Assembly: GCA_042570305.1 (NCBI GenBank)
Contig: JBHPGP010000006.1
Coordinates: forward strand, 4,242-49,010
DNA from: Candidatus Omnitrophota bacterium
GTDB lineage: Bacteria > Omnitrophota > Gorgyraeia > Gygaellales > JAHJCI01
Length of the DNA stretch: 44,769 nucleotides
Reading direction: 5' to 3'
Made by a program: the position numbers and the translations under genes. A model generated the notes under the pieces. That model made no database searches, was not told the origin of the DNA, and saw only the letters and a program-made list of their open reading frames with translations. Shown one piece after another: positions 2,674-39,994 of the stretch; within the stretch, counting starts at the first letter, position 1; every line of letters begins with the position of its first letter.

Positions 2674-3066
2674 CTACTCTACTATTTCAACATCTTCGAC
2701 TCTAAAATGCTCATCTAGCCATAATGCAAGTATCTTCTTTACTGGAAATTTCCACGCAGTAATAACCTTTACGGCATTACGCAAATGTTCTTTTTGCACA
2801 AATTCATTCTCAGGATTACCTGCACAATCATAGTGTGCCACAATGGCGATAATTTGTGAATTATGTTTCTCTACAGAAATTTCTACTTTTTTCTTTAAAA
2901 GTTCAATTGTGTTCGTATCTTGACCTTCCGATAATATTTTATTAGGTCCTGGTTCTGTAATCATATCAACATAATCAACTTTAAAACTTTTCTCTATATA
3001 TTCTACGACTGGTTTTTGAACACGTCCATCTATGCAATTTATAGCCGTAGCGAATTCTTTAGCCAT
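2674..3066 (-). CDS. Putative beta-class-like carbonic anhydrase
   Basis: CIDGR (CxDxR) and HYDCAG (HxxC) Zn ligands; start moved to ATG 3066 (AAGGA RBS) because the longer ORF reads through repeat A. Confidence 0.75.
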   Translation of the reverse strand: MAKEFATAINCIDGRVQKPVVEYIEKSFKVDYVDMITEPGPNKILSEGQDTNTIELLKKKVEISVEKHNSQIIAIVAHYDCAGNPENEFVQKEHLRNAVKVITAWKFPVKKILALWLDEHFRVEDVEIVE

Positions 3067-3145
3067 ATATTTATCCTTTCTGGTATAATTTACTATAAAA
3101 CAAAGCCCTCTGCAAGCCTGATTCCAGAGGGCCAAACCCCATCCC

Positions 3146-3313
3146 TAATGAGCAGATAACTTACGGAGCAAAGCGACGTAAGTTATAGCGCAGCGTCTGC
3201 GAATTATCCCGAAGCTTATCCTCAAGGATAGGCCTTACCTCTACCTTTTAAGGGAAGGGCCTTAAGCTAAAATTGTCGCAGAGAATTTTAGCTTGTTTAA
3301 GCAAGGGACAACT
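3146..3313. repeat. Family B folded palindromic element, copy 2 (168 bp)
   Basis: Near-identical to 2061-2228 (GCAAAGC loop is GCGCAGC here). Confidence 0.9.
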
Positions 3314-3332
3314 ACAGAAGAACAGAACCGTC

Positions 3333-3662
3333 CTATATTTTGCAACTGCATTTCTTGCTCTCTAATATTTTCTTCTGTCTTTTGTGAGAGTCTATGAATA
3401 TATTCTGTTTTTTAGAGCCAGTAGCAAGCTTGCTGTTAAGATTACTATAATGATTATACCCCCTGCCTTGCATTTCTTTAATGAGTTTTTGATGTCTTGT
3501 ATACAAAGCTGCTAATTTGTTTCTCCATCTAAGGGTCTCTGGGTGCTTAGAGTATCCTTTTTTATTCTTGGTTAAAACAGACCATATAGCGTGCAATTCT
3601 TTATGTTCGCCAAGAAGATGGTTACGGCAAAGTTTTTTTGGAGAAATATCCCAGATTCTCAT
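3333..3662 (-). CDS. Pyrimidine-dimer DNA glycosylase / T4 endonuclease V-like protein
   Basis: MRIW...LCRNHLLGEHKELH...HPETLRW...L..RH..LIKEM..RGY.H; start moved to ATG 3662. Confidence 0.8.
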   Translation of the reverse strand: MRIWDISPKKLCRNHLLGEHKELHAIWSVLTKNKKGYSKHPETLRWRNKLAALYTRHQKLIKEMQGRGYNHYSNLNSKLATGSKKQNIFIDSHKRQKKILESKKCSCKI

Positions 3663-3762
3663 AATTCTATTCCTTATTTTTGAAAAAGGAAACCCTCTGC
3701 AAGCCTGATTCCAGAGGGCGCTTGGGAACACCCTGCCGATTGGCTCAAAGGGTGTCCCTAAT

Positions 3763-7395: not shown

Positions 7396-7560
7396 TAGTC
7401 CTCCTTTGAAAAAAATAGAGAGCCCCTATTTAGAAACTCTCTTGAAATTTAATAAATTGGCCTCATCCCTCCACCTCTTTGTGGTAACTCTATTATCCTA
7501 CTTGTTCACTCAAAGTAAACTATTATTTAAGGAATTTTTGTGTGGCTAAGGGATTTGTTT

Positions 7561-7749: not shown

Positions 7750-10700
7750 TTACTTCTTCTTATGGTATTCCTGGAGGGATTTGACTTTGAGAGACTTCTT
7801 GGAGAGCGCCTCAATGGCATTTACCGTTGCCTCAGCCCCTGCAATCGTTGTTACCAGCGGGACATTGTAAAGGATGGCAGTGCTTCTGATAATCGTCTCA
7901 TCCTTCTTGGTAATCTTTCCCCTTGGCGTGTTGATAATCAGCTGAATCTGGCCGTTTTTAAGGATATCCACGATATGCGGCCTTTTCTCATGGAGCTTTG
8001 AGACTACCTTGACCTTGAGGTCATTCTGCTTTAAGGCATTGGCAGTGCCGCTGGTGGCAAAGAGCTTAAAGCCCATATCCGCCAGCTTCTTGCAAAGGAA
8101 AACTATCTTCCTCTTATCCTCATCCCTGACCGTAATCAGGATATTGCCTTTAAGGGGAATATTCTGCCCTGCTGCCAGCTGGCTCTTGGCAAATGCCATG
8201 CCAAATGTAGAATCAATGCCCATTACCTCACCGGTTGACTTCATCTCAGGGCCTAAAATCGCATCTACGCCGGGGAAGCGGACAAACGGGAAAACCGATT
8301 CCTTGACCGCCACATTATTGGTCTTAACCTCTTTGGTAATGCCCAATTCCTTTAAGCTCTTGCCCAGCATTACGCGGGTGGCAACCTTTGCCCAGGGGAT
8401 TCCGCTTGCCTTGGAAACAAAGGGAACTGTTCTGGAGGCGCGCGGGTTTACCTCTAATATGTAAACCTTGCCGTGCCTGACTGCGTACTGGATATTCAAC
8501 AGCCCCTTGACATTCAGCTCCCTTGCCAGGGCATGGGTATTTTCTCTTATCTTTTTGATAATTGACTCCTGCAGGCTGTGGGGCGGAAGCACCATTGCGC
8601 TGTCGCCTGAGTGAATGCCTGCTTCTTCTATATGCTCCAAAATCCCGGCAATCACGCAATTCTTACCGTCGGAAACCGCATCCACATCCACCTCAATTGC
8701 GTCTTCCAGGAACTTATCCACCAATATTGGCCGCTCAGGGGATGCCTCAATTGCCTTTTGCATAAAATTGCTTAATTCCTCGTTATCATAGACAATCTCC
8801 ATTGCCCTGCCGCCTAAAACAAAGGAAGGCCTGACTACCACAGGAAAACCAATCTCATTGGCGATTTTCCTTGCCTGCTCAAATGAGGTGGCAATCCCGC
8901 TGTCTGCCTGGACCAGCTTTAATTTCTGAAGCATTGACCTGAAGCGCTTCCTGTCCTCTGCCCGGTCAATGGAATCAGGGCTGGTGCCTAATATCTTTAC
9001 CCCTGCCTTGTGCAGCGCTGTTGAGATATTCAAGGGAGTCTGACCGCCAAACTGCACAATGATGCCCATCGGCTTTTCCACGTCAATGATATTTAATACA
9101 TCCTCGACTGTGAGCGGCTCAAAATAGAGCTTGTCCGAGGTGTCATAGTCTGTGGAAACCGTCTCCGGGTTACAGTTTACCATAATGCTCTCAATGCCCT
9201 CTTCCTTTAACACGTAGGAGGCCTGGCAGCAGCAGTAATCAAACTCAATGCCCTGGCCGATGCGGTTTGGGCCGCCGCCTAAGATCAGCACCTTTTTCCT
9301 GGAGCTCGGCTTAGACTCACTGGCTGACTCATAAGTGGAATAATAATAGGGCTGCTTGGCTGTAAATTCTCCGGCGCAGGTATCCACTAATTTATATGCC
9401 GGTTTGACCTTTTTCTTTTTTCTGTAAGCGCGCATCTTCTCCTCCGTGGTGTTCGAAAGATAGGCTAACTGAATATCCGAGAAGCCGTCCTGCTTGGCTT
9501 TTAAAAGCAAGGAAGCCGGAATCCTGGGCGCCTGGTTTTTCTTGGGATTCCTAAACCTGGCAATCCCCTTCTCCTCCTCTACCAGCTGCTGCATATTATC
9601 CAGGAACCAGCGGTCTATCCTGGAAAGCTCATAAATTTCGTCGATTGACATCCCTGCCTTGAGCGCATAGCGGATAAAAAACAATCTTTTATCATTGGGT
9701 ATCTTGATTTTCTGTTTGACCAGCTCTAAATCATGCTGCTGCTCTTTCGGGACATCCCTGCCGTCTGCGCCAAAACCAAAGCGGGAGATTTCCGTCGAGC
9801 GGATTCCTTTCTGAAACGCCTCGCGGAAATTCCTGCCGATTGACATTGCCTCTCCCACTGCCTTCATCGAGGTATTCAACACCACTTCTGCCTCGGGGAA
9901 TTTCTCGAAAGTGAACCTGCAGATCTTGAATACGCAGTAATCAACTGTCGGCTCAAAGAAAGAAGTGGTTTTGCCGGTAATCTGGTTCATCACTTCAGGC
10001 AAGGTATAGCCTACGGCTAATTTTGTCGCGACCCTGGCAATGGGAAATCCGGTTGCCTTGGAAGCCAGAGCGGAGCTGCGCGACAGCCTGGGATTAACCT
10101 CGATAATTACGATATGCCCGTTATTTGGATTTTGGGCAAACTGGATATTTGCCCCTCCGCCGTTCACATCCACCTTGCGGATAATCTTCTTGGATTTGTT
10201 CACGAAATCCGTATATTCCTCGGCAGTCAGGCTCTGCGCCGGAGCGACCACAATGCTGTCTCCGGTATGCACGCCCATCGGGTCAACGTTCTCCATTGAG
10301 GTAATCATAATCACGTTGTCAGCACAGTCGCGCATTACCTCAAACTCGATTTCCTTCCAGCCCAATACTGACTGCTCAACCAGCACCTGTCCTACAGGGC
10401 TGATCTCGATTGCCTTGGAAAGATACGTCTCAAGCTCCTCCTGATTATATGCGGTTGCTCCACCCGCACCTCCTAAACAAAAAGCCGGCCTTAGGATTAA
10501 AGGAAAACCTATGCCCAGGCCTATCTTCATGCCCTGCTCTACGGAAGTGGCAATCCCGCTTTTGGGAACATCAACGCCTATTTCCTGCATTGCCTTTTTA
10601 AATAATAACCTGTCCTCTGCCCGGGCAATTGCCTCGATATTCGCGCCGATTGCCTCGACCCCGTATTTCCTTAATATACCCTCCCTGCTCAAGAAGGTTG

Positions 10701-10995
10701 CCAGGTTCAGACCGGTCTGGCCTCCTAATGTAGGCAGCACTGCATCCGGCCTTTCCTTTTGGATAATCCTGGTCAACACATCAACTGTCAAAGGCTCAAT
10801 ATAAGTCCTGTCCGCCATGCCAGGGTCAGTCATAATCGTTGCCGGGTTTGAATTCACCAGGACCGTATGATACCCTTCTTCCCTTAATGCCTTGCAGGCC
10901 TGGGAACCGGAGTAATCGAATTCGCAGGCTTGCCCTATCACAATCGGGCCAGAGCCAATCATTAAAACCTTGTGGATATCCTTGCGTTTAGGCAT
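7750..10995 (-). CDS. carB: Carbamoyl-phosphate synthase large subunit
   Basis: [24 protein letters not shown], two ATP-grasp halves (EVNPR twice), C-terminal MGS domain; ATG at 10995. Confidence 0.97.
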
Positions 10996-12043
10996 TGACA
11001 AACTCCTTTAAAATCGGATTTACCTCGCCGCTTCCCGGAGAAACCAGCAAAAACTGGCAGCCGAATGCTTTTAGTTTCCTGTTCTCGATTCCCTCTATTG
11101 TTTTATCATTCAGGTTCTGCCAGGTAATCTTGATGTTCCTGCCCTTCAGGCTCGCCTGGTCAATGATAAACCTGTGGTTTTGCACGGTAATCTCTCCCTT
11201 TAGGCATCCGGGCTTAACCACCGGATAATTTACCCCCCGGTGGCCTAAATACATCTTTTTTAACCTCCCGCCCATTGCCATTGCCAGAACCTGACAGCCT
11301 GTGCCTATTCCCAATACCGGCACTTTACCTAAAAGCTCTTTCACTCTCCCTGCAGCAATTCCTAATCCCTTTTCCATCTCGGGGCCGTCAGAGACAATTA
11401 CCCCTTTGGCAGCAAGCGCTAAAATATCATCGGCATTTGCCTGATAAGGTATCAGGCTCACGCGGCAACCCAGCATTTCCAGCTGCCTGAGCAGTCCGTT
11501 GGTAACCCCCAGGTCGACAACGGCAATGTGCCTGCCGCGGCCTGAGGACTTCTTGATTCTTTTTACTGAAACCCGATTCAGGAAATCTTGTTTTTTCTGC
11601 TTTGCCTTTTTTATCTTTGCTCTTAGGCTGCGCGGATTAAAATCGCGCGTTGAGATTATCCCCCACTGTTCTCCTTTATTACGTAATTCCACCATCAGGG
11701 TCCTGGTATCAACCTGCTCTAAGGCAAGCACTTTTTCCTTCTTAAGGAAACTCACAAAATCCTGTTCTGCCTGCCAGTTGCTGGTGAGGCGGGTTTTTTC
11801 TTTAATCACTATTCCGCTCGCCCAGCATTGCCTGGACTCCTGGAATTTCCGGGCTACTCCGTAATTGCCGATTAAGGGATAAGTCATTACCACAATCTTG
11901 CCGGCATTGACTGGCGAGGTGATTAATTCCTGATAGCCCACCACGCCGGTATAAAAGCTTACCTCACCTGTTTTTTCTCCTGCTATTCCGCAGGAAATTC
12001 CCTGATATAGCGAGCCGTTTTCCAAAGCCAGTATTGCTTTCAT
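10988..12043 (-). CDS. carA: Carbamoyl-phosphate synthase small subunit, glutaminase triad degenerate
   Basis: GYQE...[24 protein letters not shown] present; canonical GICLGHQ is GIGTGCQ and QYHPE is QFLLV; ATGA overlap with purF. Confidence 0.9.
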
Positions 12044-13425
12044 TTGTCCTCTCCGCAGGCAGAAACCCCGTCCCAGCACCTCAAGCAAAGCTTACTTTTA
12101 GGTATGCCGATTGCCTCCACAAAATCATCCAAACTGTTATACTTTACTGAGTCGGCCCCAATCTGCTCTCCCACCTTTGCCTCTACCATCTTTAATTTCT
12201 CCGGGGAATCTATTTCCCCCTTCCTGATATAAGAGCGCGCTGCCAGTTCCTCGTATGTCCTGGTTGAGATTCCGTAAATACAGGGGTGCATCAGCGGAGG
12301 GCAAGCCACGCGCACATGCACCTCTTTTGCTCCTGCCTTTTTCAGGTCGCGCACTTTATTGCGGATCTGCGTGCCGCGCACAATGGAATCATCACAGAGG
12401 ATAATCCTCTTGCCCTGCACTGCCTCCCGGATGACGGAAAGCTTTTTCTTTGCCATCCTGTCCCTGGCCTCCTGTGTTGCCATTGTATAGCTGCGGTCAG
12501 CATAGCGGTTATACAAAAATACGTCCTGGTATTGAATCTTTGAGCGCTTATGATACCCAAGCGCATGGCCGATGCCTGACATGGGAACCGGGGAAACGCA
12601 ATCTGCCTGGATTCCGCCCTCTTTTTCATCGCGCTCTGCCAGCTTCTCGCCCAGGTTATTCCTTGCCTCCTTAACATAAACACCGTCGATCTTGGAATCA
12701 ATGCTGGCAATATAAGCCCACTCAAAAGCGCAATAGGCAATGCGCGGCGAGGGAAGCTGCTTTAAGGTGCTAAACCCCTGCTTGTTAATCAGCAGGATTT
12801 CTCCGGGTTTAACGTCCCGCTCTATCTCCATGCCTAAGTTCTCCAAAGCCCTTGATTCGCTGGCTGCCACGAATTTTCCCCTGTCCGTGCCTAAAATCAA
12901 AGGGCGAAAGCCAGAAGGGTCGCGCGCCACATAAATGCCGTCCTTGTTTAAAATCAGCAGTGAAAATGAGCCCTTGATTTTCTCGCTCATCCTGGTAATC
13001 CCCTGCACAATATCCTTTTCTTCGCCAACCAGCTTCAGTAGCAGCTCAATATAGCTATTGGTAGAGAATGAATGCCCGCCTCTTTTGAATTCCCCAAACA
13101 GCTCATCCGCATTAATGATATTGCCGCTAAAGCAGCCTACAAAGCTACCGAGGTCACTATTCAGCCATAAAGGCTGCCGGTCGCGTAAACTCACATGGCC
13201 GATTCCTGAATTGCCCTTAAGCGAATTAAGCTCTGCCTCGGTAAACCTTGCCCCTACCCTGCCCCGGTGGGTAATCAGGTTAATCTCGTCATTACTAAAC
13301 GTAGCAATCCCGCAGTATTCCTGTCCGCGGTGCTGCAGGAAATCAATCCCCAGGTATATATCGCTTACGCAATCCTCTCTTGAATAGATCCCGAATACTC
13401 CGCAATTATCCTTTATCTCTTTCAT
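12040..13425 (-). CDS. purF: Amidophosphoribosyltransferase-like protein with degenerate Gln-binding site
   Basis: CGVFG, QHRGQE, DDSIVRGT PRPP motif and Fe-S cysteines kept; GHVRYST loop, HNG and SDTE altered. Confidence 0.9.
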   Translation of the reverse strand: MKEIKDNCGVFGIYSREDCVSDIYLGIDFLQHRGQEYCGIATFSNDEINLITHRGRVGARFTEAELNSLKGNSGIGHVSLRDRQPLWLNSDLGSFVGCFSGNIINADELFGEFKRGGHSFSTNSYIELLLKLVGEEKDIVQGITRMSEKIKGSFSLLILNKDGIYVARDPSGFRPLILGTDRGKFVAASESRALENLGMEIERDVKPGEILLINKQGFSTLKQLPSPRIAYCAFEWAYIASIDSKIDGVYVKEARNNLGEKLAERDEKEGGIQADCVSPVPMSGIGHALGYHKRSKIQYQDVFLYNRYADRSYTMATQEARDRMAKKKLSVIREAVQGKRIILCDDSIVRGTQIRNKVRDLKKAGAKEVHVRVACPPLMHPCIYGISTRTYEELAARSYIRKGEIDSPEKLKMVEAKVGEQIGADSVKYNSLDDFVEAIGIPKSKLCLRCWDGVSACGEDK

Positions 13426-13456
13426 CTGCGCATCTCCTGAATCCTAAATCCAAAGT

Positions 13457-14395
13457 TTATATATACTCTATCGTACTTGGCGGCTTGGGGGTAATGTCAA
13501 AAAGCACCTTTACCACCCCGGGAATCTCCTTAATCATCCTGTCCCTGATTCTTTCCAGTATCTGCCAGGGCACCTTGGTTACGGATGCGGTCATGGCATC
13601 CTTGCTCTCTACTGACCTGATGACAATGATGTTGCCGAAAATACGCTTTTTGTTTCTCATGCCTGTGGCTTTATCCTTCAACAAAACCGCTAATGCCTGG
13701 AACGGCTTTAATTTTTCTATCTCCTCTTCAACTATGGTCGTAGCCCGCCTTAAAATCTTCACCCTCTCAGGAGTAACTTCTCCGATTACCCTTGTTGCCA
13801 GGCCCGGGCCGGGAAAGGGCATCTGCTTATAGACGCGAGGGGAGAAACCCATCTCTTTGGCTACCTCTCTTACCTGATATTTGAATAGTTCTCGCAGCGG
13901 CTCTACTACCCTGAAGCCGAATTGTTTTTTCGGGTCAATGCCGATCTGGCCTAAGATATTATGCTGGGTTTTAATCCCGGCCTTGGTCTCGATAATATCC
14001 GCGGCAATTGTTCCCTGGATCAATGACTCTGCTTTATTCCTGCGCACTGCCCTGCCCAAAGTCTGGTAAAACTCCTGGCGGAATGCCTTGCGTTTTTTCT
14101 CCGGGTCTTCCTTGCCCTTAAGCGCTTTAAAGAATTCGCTTTTGGCATTCAGGGTATTTAACTTGATGCCCAGAGACTTAAGCTCTCTCCTGGCTTTAGA
14201 CTCATCGCTTTCCCTCATTAACCCGTCGTCAATAAAAAGAATGAATGCCCGGTTACCCAGTGCCTTGTGCGCTAATGCAGCGCAGGTCATGCTGTCTACG
14301 CCTCCGGAGGTAGCCACCAGCGTCCTTCTCGCGCCTACCTCTTTTTTAATCTCTGCCAGCTTCTTCCTGATAAACTCTTTTGTCTTTAACTTCAT
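13457..14395 (-). CDS. guaA: GMP synthase ATP-pyrophosphatase subunit only (no GATase domain)
   Basis: SGGVDS PP-loop, DPEKKRK, QGTI, IKTQHN, PFPGPGLA, DITPKPPSTIE; ATG 14395 after GGAGGAG. Confidence 0.92.
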   Translation of the reverse strand: MKLKTKEFIRKKLAEIKKEVGARRTLVATSGGVDSMTCAALAHKALGNRAFILFIDDGLMRESDESKARRELKSLGIKLNTLNAKSEFFKALKGKEDPEKKRKAFRQEFYQTLGRAVRRNKAESLIQGTIAADIIETKAGIKTQHNILGQIGIDPKKQFGFRVVEPLRELFKYQVREVAKEMGFSPRVYKQMPFPGPGLATRVIGEVTPERVKILRRATTIVEEEIEKLKPFQALAVLLKDKATGMRNKKRIFGNIIVIRSVESKDAMTASVTKVPWQILERIRDRMIKEIPGVVKVLFDITPKPPSTIEYI

Positions 14396-14405
14396 TACTC
14401 CTCCC

Positions 14406-14530
14406 AATGAGCAGATAATTTACGGAGCATCAGCGACGTAAATTATAGGCCGTAGGCCGTCTGCGAATTGTCCCGAAGCTTACGCAGTACTTTTCGAAGA
14501 AAAGTACAAGTGCTTAAGCAAGGGACAACT
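14406..14530. repeat. Family B folded element, copy 4 (diverged)
   Basis: AATGAGCAGATAA...GGGACAACT ends shared with copies 1-3; compensatory stem change and different inner hairpins. Confidence 0.85.
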
Positions 14531-14540
14531 TCATATATAA

Positions 14541-16061
14541 TTACCTTAAAAAATATCCGGGTGTAGTGGGGTTGGCATCAGTGGTCATACTAATGCCCAG
14601 CCTCCTTAAGCCTCCGTCATCGCCTTCCGAAGGCAGATGCGTAAGATGCATCTGGCACCCGTTTAATTTCCCCAATTCCTTCATCCCTGCCTCTGCTGCC
14701 GGATTTGCGGTAGCGCTGATGGAAAGCGCAATCAAGATCTCTTCTACATCCAGGCTTTCTGACTTCATTCCCAGCGTATCCTTTTTTAACGCACTGATAT
14801 TATTCACTACTGCCCGGGGAAGCAGGTCTATTTTATCCGGTATCTTTGCCATTACTTTGACTGCGTTTAAGACCGCAGCCGAAGCCGCATGCAGCAATCC
14901 GGAGCTCTTTCCGGTGACAATCTTGGCATTGCCAAGCTCTATGGCTGCGCCGCAGGATATTCCGTTATTGGACTTTGCCTTTTTCCCTGCCCTGGCTGCT
15001 GCCTTTCTCGCGGCAACCACACAGAGCCTGTTCTCTTCTTTTAACCCCAGCTCTTCCATCAGGGTTTTAGCGCGCTGCGCTGTTTCCTTTTTCTCCAAAC
15101 CCAGCATAAACTCCCTTTGATAGCGGAAATACCTGCGGATAATCTCTTGTTTCGCTGCCTCCTGCACAATCTTATCGTCAACGATTCCAAAGCCTGCCCG
15201 GTTTACCCCCATATCGGTCGGAGAGTTATACATCAGCATAGCCTTACCGCTTCCCACTATCCTCTCTAAGATCCTCTTTAATATAGGAAAGGCCTCTACG
15301 TCGCGGTTATAATTGATTGCCTCCTCTTTATATGTCTCCAGGTGAAACGGATCCACTAAATTAAAATCCCTTAAATCACAGGTAGCTGACTCATAAGCAA
15401 CATTCACCGGGTGCTTCAGGGGCAGATTCCAGATGGGAAATGTTTCGAATTTTGCATAGCCGGAATTAATCCCTTTTTTATGGTCGTGATAAACCTGGGA
15501 AAGACAGGTAGCCAATTTTCCGCTTCCGGGACCGGGGGCAGTAACAATCACAATCGGCTTTTTGCTTGTGATATACTGATTCTTGCCGAGGCCTTTTTCG
15601 CTGACGATATTGTCCACATCCGAGGGATAGCCCGGTATCTCCTGGTGTGTATATACGGCAATACCTTTACGCTCCAGCCTGTTCTTGAACCTTACTGCCT
15701 GCGACTCATTGTTAAAACGGGTAAGCACTACGCTGGAAACGTCCAATCCCCAGTCTTTGAGGTCATCTATCATAAACAAGGCAGCAGTATCATAGGTCAT
15801 CCCGAAATCACCGCGGAGCCTGCCCATTTCTACGTCTTTGGCATAAACACAAAATACAATCTCTATCTTATCCCCGAGCATTTTAAGCAGCCTTATTTTC
15901 GCCCGCGGGTCATAACCGGGTAAGACTCGGGCAGCGTGATAATCCAGGCAAAGCTTGCCCCCGAATTCAAGGTAGAGCTTATGGTCGAACTTCTTCACCC
16001 GCTCCAGGATGAAGCTTGCCTGCTCGGCTAAATACTTCTCGTTATCAAAGCCTTTTTTCAT
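14541..16061 (-). CDS. DUF1846 (UPF0371) family protein
   Basis: GFDNEKY, KLYLEFGGKL, TAPGPGSGKLATCLSQ, GYAKFETFPIWNLPLKHPVNVAYE, SPTDMGVN. Confidence 0.9.
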   Translation of the reverse strand: MKKGFDNEKYLAEQASFILERVKKFDHKLYLEFGGKLCLDYHAARVLPGYDPRAKIRLLKMLGDKIEIVFCVYAKDVEMGRLRGDFGMTYDTAALFMIDDLKDWGLDVSSVVLTRFNNESQAVRFKNRLERKGIAVYTHQEIPGYPSDVDNIVSEKGLGKNQYITSKKPIVIVTAPGPGSGKLATCLSQVYHDHKKGINSGYAKFETFPIWNLPLKHPVNVAYESATCDLRDFNLVDPFHLETYKEEAINYNRDVEAFPILKRILERIVGSGKAMLMYNSPTDMGVNRAGFGIVDDKIVQEAAKQEIIRRYFRYQREFMLGLEKKETAQRAKTLMEELGLKEENRLCVVAARKAAARAGKKAKSNNGISCGAAIELGNAKIVTGKSSGLLHAASAAVLNAVKVMAKIPDKIDLLPRAVVNNISALKKDTLGMKSESLDVEEILIALSISATANPAAEAGMKELGKLNGCQMHLTHLPSEGDDGGLRRLGISMTTDANPTTPGYFLR

Positions 16062-16830
16062 ATACTGCTAACCCCTTGTCTTTTAAATAAGCCTTTGCCT
16101 GCCCGATGGTAATCTCACCGAAATGGAATACCGATGCGCAGAGAACCGCTGCCGCGCCTGCTTTCACCACTGCATCATAAAGATGCTCCAACCTCCCTGC
16201 TCCGCCTGAAGCTGTTACCGGAATAGAGACTGCCTCAGCCACTGCCTTAGTCATCTCTAAATCATAACCTGCTTTTGTTCCGTCAGCGTCCTTGCTGGTC
16301 AGGAGAATTTCGCCTGCGCCTTGCTCCTCTACTCTCCTTGACCATTCTACGATATCCATTCCCGTGGCCTGGTTTCCGCCGTTTATCAAAACCTCAAGAA
16401 GAGGTAAATTGCCGCCGGAAGGATTCTTCCTGCCGTCTATGGCAACTACAATCCTCTCCTTACCGAATTTCTCAGATGCCTGCTTAATCAAATCTGGATT
16501 CTTAACCGCAGCCGTATTTATGGAAACCTTGCTTACGCCCAGGTCGAACAAGGCCTGCATATCCTCAAGATTCCTGATGCCTCCGCCCACCACAAAGGGA
16601 ACAGTAACCACATCCGCAACCCTCTTCACCCACTCCAATCTAGTCGGTCTGGATTCCACTGAAGCGGCGATATCCAGGAAAGCCAGCTCATCCGCGCCCT
16701 CCTTACAGTAGCATTGAGCTGCCTCAACCGGATCACGGGCGTCTCTGAGATTGACGAACTTTATTCCCTTGACTACGCGTGCTTCTTTGATATCCAGACA
16801 GGGTATGATTTTGATTGGCTGTATTGGCAT
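16045..16830 (-). CDS. hisF: Imidazole glycerol phosphate synthase cyclase subunit
   Basis: IIPCLD, VVKG, GADELAFLDI, VGGGI, GAGEILLTS.D.DGT, ASGGAG, ASVFH. Confidence 0.95.
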   Translation of the reverse strand: MPIQPIKIIPCLDIKEARVVKGIKFVNLRDARDPVEAAQCYCKEGADELAFLDIAASVESRPTRLEWVKRVADVVTVPFVVGGGIRNLEDMQALFDLGVSKVSINTAAVKNPDLIKQASEKFGKERIVVAIDGRKNPSGGNLPLLEVLINGGNQATGMDIVEWSRRVEEQGAGEILLTSKDADGTKAGYDLEMTKAVAEAVSIPVTASGGAGRLEHLYDAVVKAGAAAVLCASVFHFGEITIGQAKAYLKDKGLAVYEKRL

Positions 16831-16861
16831 GTGCTTAAAGATTAGGCAATTCTTTGTTCAG

Positions 16862-16906
16862 AAAAAAGGCGTCAATGTAGTTTTGCTACAAAGACGCCCT
16901 TGTCTT
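16862..16906 (-). promoter_or_regulatory. Leader terminator overlapped by an ANTAR-type hairpin
   Basis: Minus strand: AAGAC-AAGGGC-GTCTT (hexaloop A1/G4) overlaps the 5' arm of terminator GGCGTC..TGTAG-CAAAA-CTACA..GACGCC-T6; adjacent gene encodes an ANTAR protein. Confidence 0.75.
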
Positions 16907-16918
16907 AGCAGATGATTA

Positions 16919-16947
16919 ATCATAACACAACTCTAATGCTTGGTCAA
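16919..16947 (-). promoter_or_regulatory. sigma70 promoter of the hisF-carB operon
   Basis: TTGACC-17bp-TATGAT with TG extension. Confidence 0.75.
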
Positions 16948-17054: not shown

Positions 17055-17768
17055 TCAGTCTAATTCGTTAGCCAGGATAATCGCCTCGGCTATCTCGCGC
17101 ATTGTCCGGCGGGTATTCATTGCCTGTTTCTGAATCTTTTTATAGGCCTCGTCTTCTGAAATACCCTGTGATTCCATTAAAATCCCTTTTGCCCGCTCCA
17201 CAAATTTGCGCGTCTTCAGCTCCTCCTCAATCATCTTGGATTTCAGCATCAGGTTTGCGTTTTCAATCACCACCGCCGCCTGGTTGGCAACCGTAGTCAG
17301 GATATCTATTTCCTCTTTGCTAAATTTGTGTTTCTGCGAGGTATAGCTATTCAACACGCCTATCACCCTGTCCTTGACACAAAGGGGAACCGAGAGCAAA
17401 GAACAGAGGTTCTCTTTCCTGGCGATATCCCGGTTCATATAGCGGTTGTCCTGTTTTACATCCAGGACGGCAATTGGCTTGTTTTCTTTTGCCACTAATC
17501 CCGCGATACCGATTCCCAATTTAATGTTCGGCTTCCTGTTATATGCCTCGCTTACGCTCTGCGTTGCCCGTATAACCAGCTCTGCCCTCTCCTCATCCAA
17601 GAGAAGTAAAGAGCAAATCTTGGAGTTCATTACCTCGGCAGTCACCAGCACAATCAGCTTAAGGATGTCCTCGATATACAGACTAGAGGTAATCGTTTGG
17701 CTGACCTTGGAAAGGGCGGCAATCTTCTTCTTATATAAGTTGTCTTTTACGCTTCTCTTTGCAGTCAT
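17055..17768 (-). CDS. GAF-ANTAR RNA-binding antiterminator
   Basis: GAF (GIAGLVA, SLLSVPL, VIGVLN, ANQAAVVIENA) plus ANTAR (RKFVERAKGILM...SEDEAY..IQ..AM..R..M.EIAEAI). Confidence 0.92.
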   Translation of the reverse strand: MTAKRSVKDNLYKKKIAALSKVSQTITSSLYIEDILKLIVLVTAEVMNSKICSLLLLDEERAELVIRATQSVSEAYNRKPNIKLGIGIAGLVAKENKPIAVLDVKQDNRYMNRDIARKENLCSLLSVPLCVKDRVIGVLNSYTSQKHKFSKEEIDILTTVANQAAVVIENANLMLKSKMIEEELKTRKFVERAKGILMESQGISEDEAYKKIQKQAMNTRRTMREIAEAIILANELD

Positions 17769-19906: not shown

Positions 19907-22102
19907 CTATATATGCAGGCTGTTGCGCCAGGCATTATCTATCTCTTCCAGCGGCAGGTCTATGTATGAGGTAACTTTCAGCCTCTTTGTTTTTGTGGTC
20001 CGGCCGATGACTCTCAGGGGGATTTTATATTTCCCTGCAGCCTCTTTTATGCTGACGAGATTAGTCTCGGCAGCCGAGATAATTACTCGTGACTGCGTTT
20101 CGCCGAACAACAACGCATCCTGTCTGATCCCTTCAGGCAGGCTGTCAATCTGAGCTCCCAGCATTGCCTCTTGATTTGTAATGCAACACTCGCTCAGCGC
20201 AACTGCCAGGCCGCCGTCAGAACAGTCGTGCGCAGAGTTAACCAGGCCCTGCTGAATCAGCGTAAGTACGCACTTTTGCAAGGCTGCCTCCGCTTCCAGG
20301 CTGAGCCCAGGAATCCTTCCGCAGACTTTACGGTGTATTACCTTCAGGTATTCGCTGCCGCCTAACTCCTGGCGGCACTCGCCAAGAAGAATTACCAGGT
20401 TCCCTTCCTGCTTAAAACACTGGTCGGTTATCCTGTTGATATCCTTGACTACACCAAGCATTCCGATGGTAGGCGTCGGATAAATTGCTCCCTTGGGATT
20501 CTCATTATAAAAAGAAACGTTTCCGCTTACCACGGACACATTAAAGCATTCGCAGGCGTAAATAATGCCTTCCAGGCAGGACTTGAACTGCCAAAAACGG
20601 TCTGGCTTCTGGGGATTGCCGAAATTCAGGCAATCGGTAATCGCTGCGGGCTGAGCCCCTACGCAGACCAGATTCCTTGCTGCCTCGGCTACCGTAATCT
20701 GGGCGCCGCGATAGGGATCAAGAAAACAATACCTGCCGTTACAATCAGTAGTTACCGCCAACCCCGTATTAGAGCCCTTTAATCTCAATACGGCGCTGTC
20801 TCCCTTACCAGGCAACACTACGGTGTTGGTCTGGACCATGTGGTCATATTGCTCGTAAACCCAGGATTTATTGGCAATGGAAGGGGAACTTAATATTTTC
20901 AAAAGTGCCTGATTATAGTCTTCGGGCTGGCTAACCGCGCCGATATCCAGTTTTTCCAGGCTGCTTATGTATTCGGGCTCCTCGTAAGGCATATCATACA
21001 TCGGCGGGCTGGTTAATGCCTCGGCAGGCACGCAGGCAACAGTTTTGCCCTTATCTTTTATCCTCACCAGATTATCATCGCTGACCCTGCCGATTACCAT
21101 TGCGTTCAGTCCCCATTTTGAGAAAATCTTCTCAATTGCCTTTTCCTTGCCCTTTTTCACGCAGAGCAGCATCCTCTCCTGGGATTCAGACATCATCAGT
21201 TCCCAGGGAAGCATATTCTCCTCCCTCCTGGGCACGTCTTTCAAATCTATGGTTATGCCTACTCCTCCGCTTGCGGCCATTTCGCTGGTTGAGCAGGTAA
21301 GGCCTGCAGCTCCCATATCCTTAATCCCTGTTACAAACCCCGTGTCAATTGCCTCCAAGGTCGCCTCAATCAGGCATTTCTCCATAAAGGGGTCTCCAAT
21401 CTGTACGGTCGGCCTCTTTTCCTCGTTTTCTCCGAATTCCGCCGAAGCCAGAACGCTACAGCCGCCTATACCGTCCCTGCCGGTTGAGGCACCCGCATAA
21501 ATAATCGCGTTGCCTTTGCCCTTTGCCTGCGCGCGCATCAGTTTATCCTTCTTTGCCACACCCACGCACATTACGTTTACCAGGCAGTTTCCCGTATAGG
21601 CATCCTCAAAGTAAATCTCGCCCCCCACGGTAGGCACGCCTACGCAATTTCCGTAAAACTGGATTCCGTCAACTACCCCCTTTAACAAATAGCGGTTATA
21701 GGAATTATCCAGCAGGCCAAAACGCAGGGAATCAAGCAGGGCAATCGGCCGCGCTCCGGCAGTAAATATATCCCGCAGTATTCCCCCGATACCGGTAGCA
21801 GCCCCCTGCTTTGGCTCTACCTGTGAGGGATGGTTGTGGCTTTCCATCTTAAAAACAACTGCCCAGTCATCGACAATGATGCCTCCGGAATCTTCCCCGA
21901 TCAGCGTCTTAAAAATACCTTTTTGGGGCAATAACTTCAGCCACCTGCGCGAGCAAAGGTAACCGCAATGCTCTGACCACTCTACGGAAAACATCGCTAA
22001 TTCCGTAAGGGTTGGCGTACGCGCCAGAATCTTGGTGATTCGCTGATAAAGCTCGTCAGTCAAACCCAAAGACGTATAAACCTCTCGAGTTATTTCAACC
22101 AT
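19907..22102 (-). CDS. purL: Phosphoribosylformylglycinamidine synthase subunit PurL
   Basis: [42 protein letters not shown]. Confidence 0.97.
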
Positions 22103-22779
22103 TCTTTTATGGAGCGGAAAATCAGCAGCCCGTCATCTGAGCCTAAGATCTTTTCACTTGAGCGCTCAGGGTGCGGCATCAGCCCGAAAACATTGCCGCT
22201 TTGGTTAATTATTCCTGCGATATTATCCATTGCCCCGTTTGGATTAGCAGCCTGATTGACCCTGCCCTTGCTATCAGTATAGCGTAAGACAATCTGCTGG
22301 TTATCCCTCAAGCGCTTAAGCCCATCAGGGTCAATATAAAAGTTGCCTTCATGGTGGGCAATCGGCATGGAAAGCACCTGCCCCGCCTGATAAAGCCGGG
22401 TAAATGGTGCCCGGTTATTCTCTACTCTCAGTAAGGTACTACGACAGATAAAATGCAAATTTTTGTTAGGGAGCATTGCTCCGGGCAGTAAACCCACCTC
22501 AAGCAATATCTGGAATCCGTTACAAATCCCCAGGACCAGGCCGCCCTTTCCGGCGAACTCTACTATTGCATTCATTACCTTGGAAAAACGCGAGATTGCC
22601 CCCGGTCTTAAATAATCTCCGTAACTAAACCCTCCGGGCAGGATAATACAGTCGAAACCGGAAAGGTTAGTCTCTTCGTGCCAGACATAGCTTGCCTTCT
22701 CTCCCAGCACGTGCTTAACCGCCCAAAAACAATCCTGGTCGCAATTCGAACCAGGAAATATTACGATGCCGAATCTCAT
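22090..22779 (-). CDS. purQ: FGAM synthase glutaminase subunit PurQ (triad intact)
   Basis: [29 protein letters not shown]. Confidence 0.97.
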
Positions 22780-25148: not shown

Positions 25149-25757
25149 TTATGACTTAAGCACTGACTTGCGCAGACAACGGGGGCATTGAATACTAATC
25201 CGGTCAGCACGCAGAAACTCTTCTCTTTCCGGCCCAAGCGTTGGCCCTTCGGATGCAAGATTCAGATTCTTTAAATAAAGGAGCATCAGGCGGGGGTTGG
25301 AAAATGACAGCGGGCCTAATCTTTTTGCTACCCAGAGAATCTGATCATAGGGAGCGATTATCTCTCCGCAGTCACGACAGACAACCAGCTCTTTCTCAAT
25401 CTCTTGTTTTAGTTCATCCCTCTTCTCGGTTGTGGAAAAGTCAAACTTCTGAGTGAGGGCTATTCCCTTCTCGGTTAAGCAATTTGCCTGGCACTGCCCG
25501 CAGAAAATACAAATATCCCAGCGTATTACTAAAATCCTTTTACCGCCCTCATCCTTCATGCTTAATGCCCCGCTGGGACAAACCTGTACGCATGCACCGC
25601 AACCAACACATTCCTCCTTATCGAACTCAGGCCTGCCCCGGAAGCGCGGGAAAGGCACGTGCGGCTCCTTGGGGAACCTGCCTGTGTAGGGCCCTGTAAT
25701 CAACGCCCTGACTGCTTCTTTTAAGATTCTAAATTGGAAAAGGCTGGGTAATTTCAT
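25149..25757 (-). CDS. NuoI/MbhN-like 2x[4Fe-4S] hydrogenase subunit
   Basis: FRGRP, CVGCGACVQVCP, CIFCGQCQANC, plus extra CxxC pairs. Confidence 0.88.
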   Translation of the reverse strand: MKLPSLFQFRILKEAVRALITGPYTGRFPKEPHVPFPRFRGRPEFDKEECVGCGACVQVCPSGALSMKDEGGKRILVIRWDICIFCGQCQANCLTEKGIALTQKFDFSTTEKRDELKQEIEKELVVCRDCGEIIAPYDQILWVAKRLGPLSFSNPRLMLLYLKNLNLASEGPTLGPEREEFLRADRISIQCPRCLRKSVLKS

Positions 25758-25775
25758 TTCTCAGGAACTAATAAA

Positions 25776-26098
25776 TTACTTTTTATCCTCTGCGTACTTA
25801 TCACACACGCTCTTCTCCCAGAGTTTTACCCCTGCCTTATGCGCCCCGCGTGCCAATGCATGGGCGGCAACCGGAGAAGTCAAAACAATAAATATTATAC
25901 ACAAAACTGCCTTTATGCCTGCGGCAGAAAAACCCTTAAATAAAAATAGGCCAAAGAGAATACTGCAGGTGCCCAGGGTAACTGATTTAGTTGCTGCCTG
26001 CAGCCTATTATAGACATCAGGAAATCTAACCAGGCCCAGGCACCCAAAAAAATCAAAACCAATTCCGATGATGATAAAGATATTTGCGATTAACTCAT
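25776..26098 (-). CDS. MrpG/MnhG-like antiporter subunit
   Basis: GLVRFPDVYNRLQAATK, TSPVAAHALARGA; ATGA-coupled start at 26098. Confidence 0.9.
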
Positions 26099-26454
26099 TC
26101 ATCGAAGTTCCTGCCTTCCAGATATTTAGCCAAAGCCAGTGTCGAGATAAAGCTCTGTAGCGCCCAGGCAATTCCTATATCAATATACCAGTCTCTACCT
26201 GTGTGAATTCCCAATATAGCGCAAAAACCCAGAATCAGAATACCCAGGATATCAATAGCCACAATTCTATCCGCTGCAGTAGGACCTCTTAAGATGCGCC
26301 AGAGGCAGAGGAAGGCGCATAACATGAGGACATTAAACACCCTGCCCAGTAAAGGAGACTGCCATTCCAGCAGCGAAGCAAGTGGATGCATAATACTCAT
26401 CCACAAAATAGCCAGAATAATTATTAATCCTATAAACCAGCGTATCTTTTTCAT
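26095..26454 (-). CDS. MrpF/MnhF-like antiporter subunit
   Basis: RGPTAADRIVAID, FISTLALAKYL; start moved to ATG 26454. Confidence 0.88.
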   Translation of the reverse strand: MKKIRWFIGLIIILAILWMSIMHPLASLLEWQSPLLGRVFNVLMLCAFLCLWRILRGPTAADRIVAIDILGILILGFCAILGIHTGRDWYIDIGIAWALQSFISTLALAKYLEGRNFDE

Positions 26455-26461
26455 CGTAAAA

Positions 26462-26956
26462 TCAGTCGAATATTCTTCTGAGTATCCGTTCAAACCTCTG
26501 CACAATCAATTCACTTGCCCTGTCAATATCTTTATCCCTGACATCAATCCAGTGGATATATAAGAAACCCCTCTCTTCGTCAATGTCTACGCTTAATGTC
26601 CCCGGGGTTAAGGTGATGGAATTAGCCAGAAATGTAAGCGCAGTATCAGACTTAAGACTGGTTTTTACCTTAACGATACCCGGGTTAAGCGGCCGATTAG
26701 GATGTATGACGCGCCAAGCCACATCAATGTTTGCCTTAATACACTCCCAGATAAACATCGGCAAATAATAGATGAACCAGAGGTAGCGACTGGCGTGTTT
26801 GAACACATACGGCCTTTTTACAAACAAATCCCCGGTCATAAAGGCGACAAACCCGGCTACTAAAATCCCTGCCAGTATATGCTGTGAATCAACCGGCCAG
26901 CATAAACCCAGCCAGACTAACAGCCCGAGAAAGAATAAGATTATTCTACTTTTCAT
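26462..26956 (-). CDS. MrpE/MnhE-like antiporter subunit
   Basis: ANIDVA, PGIV, LANSITLTPGTL, LYIHW. Confidence 0.92.
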   Translation of the reverse strand: MKSRIILFFLGLLVWLGLCWPVDSQHILAGILVAGFVAFMTGDLFVKRPYVFKHASRYLWFIYYLPMFIWECIKANIDVAWRVIHPNRPLNPGIVKVKTSLKSDTALTFLANSITLTPGTLSVDIDEERGFLYIHWIDVRDKDIDRASELIVQRFERILRRIFD

Positions 26957-28446
26957 TATCTAACTGCCCCCAAGACAATATTACCGTATTCCCTGCCGGA
27001 TAGAACAACATCAACTGCCTGCTGAAGAAATCCCTGCAAGTGAGGGAGTAACAGCAATCCCCCCAGTAGGCAAATCAATGCCAGTCCAGCCATTGAAGCC
27101 TTCATTGGCAAAGGCACCTCTTTTATTTTCTTTAAACCCTCTCTAATCTGTCCGAAGAAGGCATACTTTTGCACCTTCATAAAAGAAGCCAGGGTTAAAA
27201 TACTACCCAAAACCGCCCATAGGGCATATCCTGAGTGCCCGGACTGCACACAGGCGAGGATAATAATTAATTTACTCCAGAATCCATTAAAGGGCGGAAT
27301 CCCGGCAATGGACATAGAGGCAACCAGGCTGGTATTCGCCGTAACCGGCATGCGCTGCCGTAGCCCGGACATCTTCTGCAAATCACGGGTACCAACAGAA
27401 TAGTCGATTGCCCCTGAATTCAAAAACAACAGTGATTTAAACACCGAGTGATTAAACAGATGGAACAAGCCGCCTAAAACCCCCAGGGGGGTAGCCAGGC
27501 TTAAGCCCAGGATTACATAGCCTATCTGGCTGACAGAATGATACGCCAGCAATCTTTTTAAATCCCACTGCCCGATAGCCAGAAACACGCCTACGATTAT
27601 CGAAAGGGTCCCTAAAAACATAAATAACGACAGTAAATTGGGGCCGGCTCCGATGATATTGAAGAACACTCTGATCAAGGCATATACACCCAATACCTTT
27701 ATGACCACTCCCGAAAGCATTGCCGAAATAGGCGCAGGCGCAGAAGGATGCGCATCAGGAAGCCAGGCATGGAAAGGAACCAGCGCCGCCTTCAGGCTAA
27801 AACCCATAAAGAATAGTACGCTGATAAAGCCGATTATATTAGCGTCTCCCTTTGTTGCCAAAACCATTGATATGTCCGCCATGTTTAAGGAAGAGGTAAA
27901 ACCATAAAGCAGGGCAATGCCCAAAAGGATAAAGCTGGAGGCAACTGAACCCATTATCGCATATTTAAAAGACGCCTCCAGCTCTTCGGATTCCGTACCG
28001 AAAGCAACCAGTGCATAACTGGCAATGGAGGCAATCTCCAGGAATACAAACAGATTAAACATATCCCCGGAAATAATTACGCCGTTCATACCAGCAAGCA
28101 TCAGCATAAACAAGGTATAGAACCTGTACTTGGAGGTATACCTTTCCATATAACTTATGGAATAAATCGTCACCAGACACGAAACCAGATTTAAAGTGAC
28201 CAGCATAAAGCCGGATAATCCATCCAGGACCATACAGATTCCGATAGGAGGAACCCAACCGCCGACTTTATAGAGTAAAATATTGCCGGGCTGGGAACCC
28301 AGATTCAAAAATGCAAATAAAGACAACGCCATAAGTCCAAAACTGACTAAATTAGCCAGAATATCCCCTGAACGCCGAGACGCCTTACCAGTCAGAGAAA
28401 TAATAAAGGCTGCTGCTAAAGGAATGGCTACAAATAAAGGTAACAT
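26956..28446 (-). CDS. MrpD/MbhH-like antiporter subunit
   Basis: DMFNLFVFLE, KAALVPFHAWLPDAH, KRLLAYHSVSQIGY, PPFNGFWSK. Confidence 0.9.
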   Translation of the reverse strand: MLPLFVAIPLAAAFIISLTGKASRRSGDILANLVSFGLMALSLFAFLNLGSQPGNILLYKVGGWVPPIGICMVLDGLSGFMLVTLNLVSCLVTIYSISYMERYTSKYRFYTLFMLMLAGMNGVIISGDMFNLFVFLEIASIASYALVAFGTESEELEASFKYAIMGSVASSFILLGIALLYGFTSSLNMADISMVLATKGDANIIGFISVLFFMGFSLKAALVPFHAWLPDAHPSAPAPISAMLSGVVIKVLGVYALIRVFFNIIGAGPNLLSLFMFLGTLSIIVGVFLAIGQWDLKRLLAYHSVSQIGYVILGLSLATPLGVLGGLFHLFNHSVFKSLLFLNSGAIDYSVGTRDLQKMSGLRQRMPVTANTSLVASMSIAGIPPFNGFWSKLIIILACVQSGHSGYALWAVLGSILTLASFMKVQKYAFFGQIREGLKKIKEVPLPMKASMAGLALICLLGGLLLLPHLQGFLQQAVDVVLSGREYGNIVLGAVR

Positions 28447-28456
28447 CTTTTTTCTA

Positions 28457-28795
28457 TTATCCCCTCAGTTGCTTAATCTTGGTAATATCAAAGGTACCGT
28501 ATTTCTCATAGATTCTTATGGCAATGGCAACGATTAAGGCAGTGACTGCCAGGCCGATTACAATAGCAGTAAGCACCAAGGCCTGAACCAAAGGATCAAC
28601 CATATTCAAGACTTCCTGATCCTTGGCCAATATCGGTGCGCGGCCATGCATACGGTAACCTACCAGTATAAACAACAGATTTACCGCATACTCAATAATT
28701 GCTAAACCAATGATAATCTTAATCAGATTTCTCTTTCTTAAGATGCAGTAAATCCCGATACTAAAAAGCACTAAACATAATAGATATAGGCTCAT
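28457..28795 (-). CDS. MrpC/MbhG-like subunit
   Basis: NLIKIIIGL, DPLVQALVLTAIVIG. Confidence 0.9.
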   Translation of the reverse strand: MSLYLLCLVLFSIGIYCILRKRNLIKIIIGLAIIEYAVNLLFILVGYRMHGRAPILAKDQEVLNMVDPLVQALVLTAIVIGLAVTALIVAIAIRIYEKYGTFDITKIKQLRG

Positions 28796-32050: not shown

Positions 32051-32060
32051 TGTCTTTGCC

Positions 32061-39982: not shown

Positions 39983-39994
39983 TTCGCCCGCTCG

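Follow-up and report, generated by a model that had tools for sequence, protein, structure and literature searches.

A candidate ammonia-dependent set of glutaminase-less synthases encoded in a single operon of an Omnitrophota bacterium

In the synthesis of nucleotides, histidine and amino sugars, glutamine is taken to be the universal currency of amide nitrogen, and when the synthases concerned use ammonia instead, this usually counts as a side activity seen in vitro. Can a bacterium encode a dedicated set of such synthases that bypasses glutamine? The question is raised by a 44,769-nucleotide stretch of Candidatus Omnitrophota DNA (hereafter the window), which corresponds to bases 4242-49010 of contig C6 in the source genome G000, a 1.27-Mb metagenome-assembled genome (MAG) of 66 contigs that is 74% complete with 0.55% contamination. 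At 7750-16830 of the window lie hisF, a DUF1846 gene, guaA, purF, carA and carB, which an initial annotation made from the DNA letters had described as co-oriented and in several cases overlapping, and had proposed to encode a dedicated isoenzyme set of glutaminase-less synthases. As judged from sequence, we give a probability of about 65% to the reading that this module is an ammonia-dependent isoenzyme set bypassing glutamine. The proposal gains support from a parallel canonical operon, from family-wide losses of glutaminase residues, from ratios of nonsynonymous to synonymous substitution (dN/dS), from the identity of the DUF1846 protein as PyrJ and from two genomes, G032 and G041, in which the module stands alone. 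Gene identities were assigned by Pfam and NCBIfam profile matches, and a prime (') denotes a glutaminase-less paralog. The features of the operon are as follows.

16919-16947, minus strand: sigma-70-like promoter, TTGACC-17-TATGAT with a TG extension, upstream of hisF'
16859-16901, minus strand: leader intrinsic terminator, a candidate antitermination target, between the promoter and hisF'
16045-16830, minus strand: hisF', cyclase subunit of imidazole glycerol phosphate (IGP) synthase (TIGR00735)
14541-16061, minus strand: pyrJ (DUF1846), predicted ammonia-only CTP synthase (PF08903 and PF20921, NF010184)
13457-14407, minus strand: guaA', ATP-pyrophosphatase subunit of GMP synthase alone; likely start Met5 at 14395
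12040-13425, minus strand: purF', amidophosphoribosyltransferase paralog with its glutamine pocket disabled and Cys1 kept (TIGR01134)
10988-12088, minus strand: carA', carbamoyl-phosphate synthase (CPS) small subunit without the catalytic triad; likely start Met16 at 12043
7750-11001, minus strand: carB', full-length CPS large subunit (NF003671)
7417-7442, minus strand: intrinsic terminator after carB', marking the operon end, an 11-pair stem followed by a T-run

These six long open reading frames (ORFs) overlap or nearly abut, and the order, content and overlaps given by the initial annotation are confirmed. The hisF' and DUF1846 genes share 17 nt, purF' and carA' have an ATGA in common when translation of CarA' is begun at Met16, as in database protein P0007, and carA' overlaps carB' by 8-14 nt, or by 8 nt at the Met3 start. 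The stretch 7750-16830 is a single operon, running from the promoter and leader terminator at 16947-16859 to the terminator at 7442-7417.

CarA' joins an N-terminal CPS small-chain domain (PF00988, 136 bits) to a class-I glutamine amidotransferase (GATase) fold (PF00117, 99 bits) and scores 305.7 bits against TIGR01368, under the equivalog cut-off of 307.35, compared with 522 bits for the canonical CarA of the same genome. Alignment to E. coli CarA, in which we take the triad to be C269, H353 and E355, places Gly at the Cys position, a gap or Leu at the His position, which is lost, and Leu at the Glu position, confirming the missing triad that had been noticed at the outset. The 120 database relatives of CarA' that were listed (49-100% identity, with the window's own protein among them) all lack Cys, His and Glu, and the replacements vary among them, with G, S, A or T at the Cys position and Y, L, I, C, S, N, D, F or A at the His position. 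Residues were also counted at a subset of related loci (L017-L045, L047, L049, L065, L101 and L116-L127), leaving aside the other 66 related-locus rows, nearly all of which contain canonical CarA of other phyla; such copies also make up most of the contig-database matches listed, among which CarA' occurs in L036-L038 only. Within the subset, 17 of 17 CarA' from other genomes keep none of the three residues and 17 of 17 canonical CarA read C-H-E.

The partner subunit, CarB', matches NF003671 with 1632.6 bits over positions 1-1058. In three MAGs of one family (G000, G001 and G008) no carbamate-phosphorylating half and no full-length large subunit other than CarB' was found, and at 17 of 17 other loci a full-length CarB follows CarA'. 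Beside active canonical CarA, CarB is an N-terminal half of 552-568 aa only (G000:C19:930-2588; L031 7600-9264; L032 1589-3247; also L040, L044, L049, L116 and L117), and no separate C-terminal half was found in G000, G001 or G008. Either the half-size CarB acts as a homodimer or active CarA uses CarB'.

The closest parallel in kind for CarA' and CarB' is animal CPS I, where a glutaminase fold without the catalytic Cys is likewise kept beside a full synthetase; human CPS1 chains match CarA', and many CarA' proteins carry the Cys-to-Ser replacement that we take CPS I to carry as well. CarA' and CarB' differ from it in being two bacterial subunits, not one fused 1500-residue chain, and CarA' has lost His and Glu as well. 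CPS I is described as an ammonia-only CPS with a dead glutaminase domain in a review (PMC6022934), the available part of which lists only CPS II for bacteria.

PurF' scores 331.9 bits against TIGR01134, below the cut-off of 350, and keeps the four cysteines of a 4Fe-4S cluster together with the phosphoribosyltransferase (PRTase) motif DDSIVRGT. Aligned to B. subtilis PurF (1AO0), it retains Cys1 behind a 7-residue propeptide (MKEIKDN, followed by CGVFGI), and the equivalents of R73, N101 and D127 in E. coli numbering, presumably the glutamine-binding and oxyanion residues, are S, S and Y. The initial annotation was right that Gln-binding residues are missing, but did not mention the retained Cys1. 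At these positions 13 of 13 canonical PurF in the locus subset read C-R-N-D, whereas the five C-type PurF' (G000, G001, G008, G032 and G041) read C-S-S followed by Y, Q or H, the D127 position being variable. A further 13 PurF', the S type, start Met-Ser-Gly, Ser replacing Cys1, and also have Ser at the R73 position, such that the R73 equivalent is lost in 18 of 18 PurF' sequences. In a maximum-likelihood tree, which carries a long-branch warning, PurF' and PurF fall apart with 100/100 support, and the C and S types each form a clade. By these residues, PurF' has lost the glutamine pocket and not the nucleophile, and, Cys1 being kept, PurF' may have switched to another nitrogen donor. Ser1-type purF' and canonical purF stand in tandem directly after purL-purQ in L023 and L027 (G027:C5 and G020:C2).

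A second PurF paralog without glutaminase features, also called PurF' and clustered with purine genes, has been reported from Crenarchaeota and, in the available text, proposed without testing as an ammonia-dependent phosphoribosyl pyrophosphate (PRPP) aminotransferase (Brown et al. 2011, PMC3261824); the same text states that E. coli PurF without Cys1 still uses ammonia. The window PurF' differs from the crenarchaeal proteins in keeping the N-terminal Cys and having lost the glutamine-binding residues instead. The Ser1 type of other Omnitrophota is closer in kind, a likeness of features and not of phylogeny.

GuaA', at 316 aa, consists of PP-loop ATP-pyrophosphatase and C-terminal dimerisation domains with no fused GATase, an absence that domain profile scans bear out, and reaches 327 bits against guaA_Cterm (cut-off 338.75) with its SGGVDS and KPPSTIE motifs intact. 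Its best PDB matches are B subunits of the two-subunit type (2DPL, 283 bits; 6JP9, 261 bits), the fused enzymes giving at most 207 bits. The protein equals archaeal subunit B (P. horikoshii 2DPL, M. jannaschii 6JP9) in length and domains, but the archaeal enzymes have a GATase subunit A as partner and none was found in G000, G008, G032 or G041. TIGR00888, which does detect archaeal two-subunit controls, gave no stand-alone GuaA-type GATase above cut-off in six MAGs (G000, G001, G008, G016, G032 and G041), just fused GuaA and TrpG-like proteins. A hidden GuaA GATase subunit was considered and rejected, as every small class-I GATase of G000 and G032 is a TrpG adjoining trpD or trpE. The ATP-pyrophosphatase subunit of two-subunit GMP synthases is reported, in the available text of PMC10526850, to use external ammonia and to work independently of its GATase. 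A third GuaA-type gene of G000 lies on contig C58 (L005 400-1560 and 1564-2832), where a GuaB3-family gene related to inosine monophosphate dehydrogenase is followed by a two-domain GuaA that runs off the contig.

The DUF1846 protein (506 aa), whose role was not explained in the initial annotation, has both DUF1846 domains (PF08903, 523 bits; PF20921, 159 bits), passes the NF010184 equivalog cut-off (713 bits versus 631) and can be aligned over its full length to the S. pneumoniae UPF0371 protein (PDB 7F00, E 3.6e-152, residues 2-495). In the available text of a preprint (bioRxiv 10.1101/2024.09.24.614635), Spd_0310, the DUF1846 protein of S. pneumoniae, receives the name PyrJ; it shows synthetic lethality with pyrG, cytidine rescues the double defect, and the purified enzyme converts UTP to CTP with ammonia and not with glutamine. 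By these matches the window protein is identified as PyrJ, a predicted ammonia-only CTP synthase; it would therefore itself be a glutaminase-free stand-in for a glutamine amidotransferase, the sixth member that fits the glutaminase-free theme. What sets it apart from the pneumococcal protein is its setting, in Omnitrophota and inside an operon of other glutaminase-less enzymes.

In vitro, HisF without HisH can act as an IGP synthase that depends on ammonia. Both its score and its catalytic residues mark HisF' as a genuine HisF: it passes TIGR00735 (325.4 bits, equivalog cut-off 294.55), its best PDB matches are HisF, with 308 bits to a reconstructed HisF, and the equivalents of D11, E46, K99, D130 and E167 are retained, including the catalytic Asp11 and Asp130. 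At the HisH interface, the equivalent of T. maritima D98, which we take to be the HisH-activating residue, is Ser, and that of R5 is Lys. The altered interface residues noticed at the outset and the lack of hisH in the window and operon both stand, but the D98 equivalent is replaced unevenly (by Ser in G000, by Asn in G032 and not at all in G008, which has Asp) and is the weakest point of the initial annotation. No hisH was found in G000 at its 74% completeness, and HisF' differs from ordinary HisF in being encoded apart from hisH; it is the sole HisF found in G032 and G041, where no hisH was found either. A reading of HisF' as an acetamidino-sugar enzyme (HisF2/WbuZ) was rejected: the WbuZ and AglZ models score under their cut-offs, the hisF model passes, and no sugar-modification genes lie nearby.

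Canonical carA, guaA, purF and pyrG are present elsewhere in G000, but hisF only as a C-terminal fragment and hisH just in the relatives G001 and G008. The canonical set of G000 comprises CarA, the CarB N-terminal half and fused GuaA on contig C19, and a second HisF tail, PurF and PyrG on contig C12; the assembly is interrupted at the junction on both contigs, and the hisF fragment lies at a contig end. On contig C4 of G008 (same family, 92% complete) the operon is intact in the order carA, carB N-terminal half (554 aa), guaA, hisH, hisF, purF and pyrG, with scores of 527, 931, 791, 230, 396, 527 and 865 bits, respectively, all far above the cut-offs, and G001 has the G008 order with purQ-purL inserted. 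G000, G001 and G008 each encode the same five reactions twice, in an operon with glutaminases and in another that lacks them.

A different arrangement is seen in G032 (1.0 Mb, 96% complete), from another Omnitrophota family, and in G041 (72% complete). The G032 operon (L119, G032:C43) reads pyrJ, hisF', guaA', gdhA, purF', carA', carB', purL and nagB, followed by trpE-trpG. Canonical carA and purF were not found in G032 and G041, which yielded only CarA' and only PurF' (317 and 314 bits), and neither genome gave a GuaA-type GATase above cut-off, hisH, a PurQ-type GATase or GlmS. PyrG was likewise found in neither G032 nor G041, and in 0 of 3 genomes of that family. These absences rest on three MAGs that are 96%, 78% and 72% complete. 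HisA and HisB are present in both genomes, and G032 has a glutamine synthetase gene (glnA). Ammonia assimilation without ATP is classically the work of glutamate dehydrogenase (GDH), and the reverse reaction of NagB, which consumes ammonia, can stand in for GlmS; gdhA (12005-13273 of L119) and nagB (3002-3742) fit the ammonia theme, and NagB was found only in G032 and G041 among six genomes tested. In another CarA' genome, G029, a GlmS homolog at G029:C2:163212-164399 (in L127) is a 453-aa ORF that matches model positions 212-607, has no N-terminal glutaminase domain and lies about 5.5 kb from carA'.

To place the module within the phylum, 200 Omnitrophota genomes sampled across it were analyzed, CarA' being called at an identity of at least 46%, clearly set apart from canonical copies at 42% or less. 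CarA' occurs in 12 of the 200 genomes, eight of which also have canonical CarA, on the same contig in G158, G142 and G042, while four (G032, G041, G025 and G029) have CarA' alone. DUF1846 is found in 90 of the 200, among them 11 of the 12 CarA' genomes, and the trio pyrJ-carA'-carB' recurs in other Omnitrophota (L036, L116, L117 and L118). Among 30 relatives, the complete six-gene module was found in G001 and G008 only; it is also present and syntenic in G032 and G041, which share no more than the phylum with G000 and belong to another class. In G001 and G008 it is syntenic with the window, being preceded by purQ-purL, a DUF5666 gene and a GAF-ANTAR gene. The corresponding features of the window are as follows.

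17055-17768, minus strand: GAF-ANTAR regulator (PF03861 and GAF domains), syntenic in G008
19907-22779, minus strand: purQ-purL, glutamine-dependent phosphoribosylformylglycinamidine (FGAM) synthase by Pfam matches, context outside the module

Module proteins of G000 and G032 share 63-79% identity, five of the six falling at 75-79%, whereas the other 44 reciprocal-best-hit ORF pairs of these genomes centre on a median of 49% and reach 72% at most; the module therefore looks to have been horizontally transferred as a unit. Comparison of G000 with G001 by the Nei-Gojobori method gave dN/dS values of 0.048 for pyrJ, 0.024 for guaA', 0.060 for purF', 0.117 for carA' and 0.035 for carB', with dS at 1-2.5 and hence near saturation; with more distant partners dS is saturated, and the proportion of nonsynonymous differences is far under that of synonymous differences in every comparison. 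The module is under purifying selection. The six reading frames are all intact, and the initial claim of intact synthase motifs and frames without decay holds up. The losses recur family-wide, in the Cys of CarA' as in the R73 equivalent of PurF', and the variable residues at the lost sites fit loss of a site, not a new specificity.

If the module is an ammonia-dependent set, free NH3/NH4+ would replace the ammonia tunnelled from glutamine and the synthase chemistry would otherwise be normal. HisF' alone would carry out the IGP synthase cyclase reaction with free NH3/NH4+, PyrJ would make CTP with free ammonia and the lone ATP-pyrophosphatase subunit would do the same for GMP. PurF', its glutamine site inactivated, would act as a PRPP amidotransferase on free ammonia, and CarB' with triad-less CarA' would form carbamoyl phosphate from it, analogously to animal CPS I. 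G000 would hold two parallel sets, a glutamine-dependent operon and an ammonia-dependent one, and the benefit of the latter would be the ATP saved at glutamine synthetase. Here we infer the in vivo use of ammonia by the module proteins, the regulatory logic and the ATP benefit.

Several observations weigh against this reading. Strongly conserved motifs persist around the former glutamine site of CarA', with H283, G285, N287, Q303, N304 and H305 invariant, and all five C-type PurF' orthologs retain Cys1 and the propeptide and may still hydrolyse some amide. The D98 position of HisF', as aligned, is not consistently changed, G008 keeping Asp, and HisF' could still use glutamine via HisH because the canonical operon of G001 and G008 carries hisH. 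PurQ, encoded just upstream of the module, retains its Cys, His and Glu, and with this intact glutaminase beside the module G000 has therefore not given up glutamine-dependent amidation. In G032 and G041, 5 of the 7 absences would be explained if one contig carrying a canonical operon were missing from the MAGs, and no ammonium transporter was found in G032.

Some of these points feed an alternative that we consider unlikely, in which the paralogs have acquired new functions, using either another nitrogen donor (an amide cleaved by Cys1 of PurF', a ligand in the CarA' pocket) or different acceptors in an unrecognised pathway. The conserved Cys1 and propeptide of C-type PurF' and the motifs around the former CarA glutamine site favour it, as do the scores of PurF', CarA' and GuaA' just under their equivalog cut-offs. 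The acceptor-side motifs, however, are intact throughout (the PRTase loop, Fe-S cysteines, SGGVDS, KPPxTIE and the HisF catalytic Asp), the replacement residues at the old glutaminase sites are not conserved, and S-type PurF' has Ser in place of Cys1. Moreover, in G032 and G041 the module proteins are the only candidates found for five essential steps, with hisA, hisB and purL present.

A second alternative, unlikely as well but the chief competitor in the case of G000, is that the paralogs are extra synthase subunits fed by glutaminases encoded elsewhere, HisF' by HisH, GuaA' by a stand-alone or borrowed GATase and CarB' by active CarA, forming a second glutamine-dependent set under different regulation. 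It draws on the hisH beside hisF in the canonical operon of G001 and G008, on the D98 kept by HisF' of G008, on the membership of GuaA' in a two-subunit-type family that normally has a GATase partner, and on the active CarA of G000: the canonical operon has a half-size CarB only and CarB' is the sole full-length large subunit, so active CarA could dock there. Against this, CarA' is translationally coupled to CarB' and full-length CarB follows CarA' at every one of the 17 other loci; no stand-alone GuaA-type GATase was above cut-off in G000, G008 or G032, the other small GATase being TrpG; and G032 and G041 keep the module with no hisH, active CarA or GuaA GATase found.

The last alternative, a decaying cluster or a binning or assembly artefact that added a foreign second gene set, might be suggested by a 74%-complete MAG in 66 contigs and three paralogs under curated cut-offs but is highly improbable, since pseudogene decay is rejected by intact frames, dN/dS values of 0.02-0.12 and the family-wide features, and a chimeric MAG is made unlikely by the 0.55% contamination, by the recurrence of the two-operon arrangement across three MAGs from one family (its contigs in G008 being 100-110 kb long) and by canonical carA and carA' sharing one contig in G158, G142 and G042.

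Returning to the ammonia-dependent reading, the regulation of the module is suggested by its leader. The terminator hairpin, with its T-run, lies some 15 nt beyond the predicted -10 box and folds with -25.1 kcal/mol (z -5.26; 0 of 200 shuffles fold as well). G008 has the same promoter hexamers, a near-identical spacer and the same hairpin with a different loop, and in G032 a promoter and terminator lie ahead of pyrJ. In G000 the gene for the ANTAR-domain regulator adjoins this leader, and at L040, L044 and L116 ANTAR homologs of 56-59% identity precede amidotransferase operons of canonical or mixed type, lying between GDH or GltD-like genes and a Glu_synthase-domain gene. It is probable that the GAF-ANTAR protein, responding to nitrogen status, regulates the module through antitermination at the leader terminator. 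We take the ANTAR target to be two tandem hexaloop hairpins overlapping a terminator; no convincing dual hexaloop hairpins were found by eye or by folding, the G000 leader having only about 15 nt between the -10 box and the terminator, and scanning the whole window against Rfam yielded 0 matches at the gathering score. In L044 (7343-8974) and L116 (5196-6791), a protein of 532-544 aa with a partial Glu_synthase domain only is encoded directly after the GAF-ANTAR gene. The Omnitrophota-like carA'/carB or ANTAR-GDH-carA operons of L037 and L040 are on contigs titled 'Clostridia bacterium', which may be taxonomic mislabels of MAGs.

Further genes were noted outside the module. At 37488-40480 of the window, genes for a glutamine synthetase, a class I/II aminotransferase and an AsnC/Lrp regulator stand in a row, and a second glnA with amtB and a GDH-like ORF is located at 14-18.6 kb of G000:C19. 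The 238-aa NAD synthetase encoded at 41156-41872 has an NAD_synthase domain only, with no C-N hydrolase glutaminase domain, and is of the ordinary ammonia-dependent NadE type. The stretch 25149-37339 encodes a membrane-bound hydrogenase/Mrp-like complex (NiFe large subunit-like, NuoH-like and several antiporter-like subunits, MbhD/E and MnhB) adjoining an Fe-S/NAD-binding oxidoreductase pair.

A broader proposal, which we offer tentatively and at somewhat under even odds, is that a mobile 'glutamine-bypass' operon runs the synthesis of carbamoyl phosphate, phosphoribosylamine, GMP, CTP and IGP on ammonia and has wholly replaced the glutaminase-dependent enzymes in the reduced lineage of G032 and G041. 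There, together with PurL without PurQ, NagB for GlmS and an in-operon GDH, it would make nucleotide, histidine and amino-sugar synthesis essentially glutamine-independent, and CarA'B' would be the first bacterial enzyme of the CPS I type. In the literature searched we saw neither the module, nor a bacterial triad-less CarA, nor PyrJ in such a context described, the supplementary distribution figures of the PyrJ preprint, which might show Omnitrophota, falling outside this search. The individual activities are known or have been proposed; what is new is a selected, co-regulated and apparently transferable operon of glutaminase-less forms of five steps, mirroring the canonical operon and seemingly replacing it in one lineage.

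If the ammonia-dependent reading is true, a direct-ammonia route would be a real physiological strategy in energy-limited, ammonium-rich anaerobic habitats, and widespread CarA, PurF and GuaA paralogs mis-annotated as 'glutamine-hydrolysing' would be given a function. PyrJ would gain a metabolic context outside Firmicutes, bacteria would have an analogue of animal CPS I, and the operon would provide a ready-made gene set for engineering glutamine-independent nucleotide synthesis.

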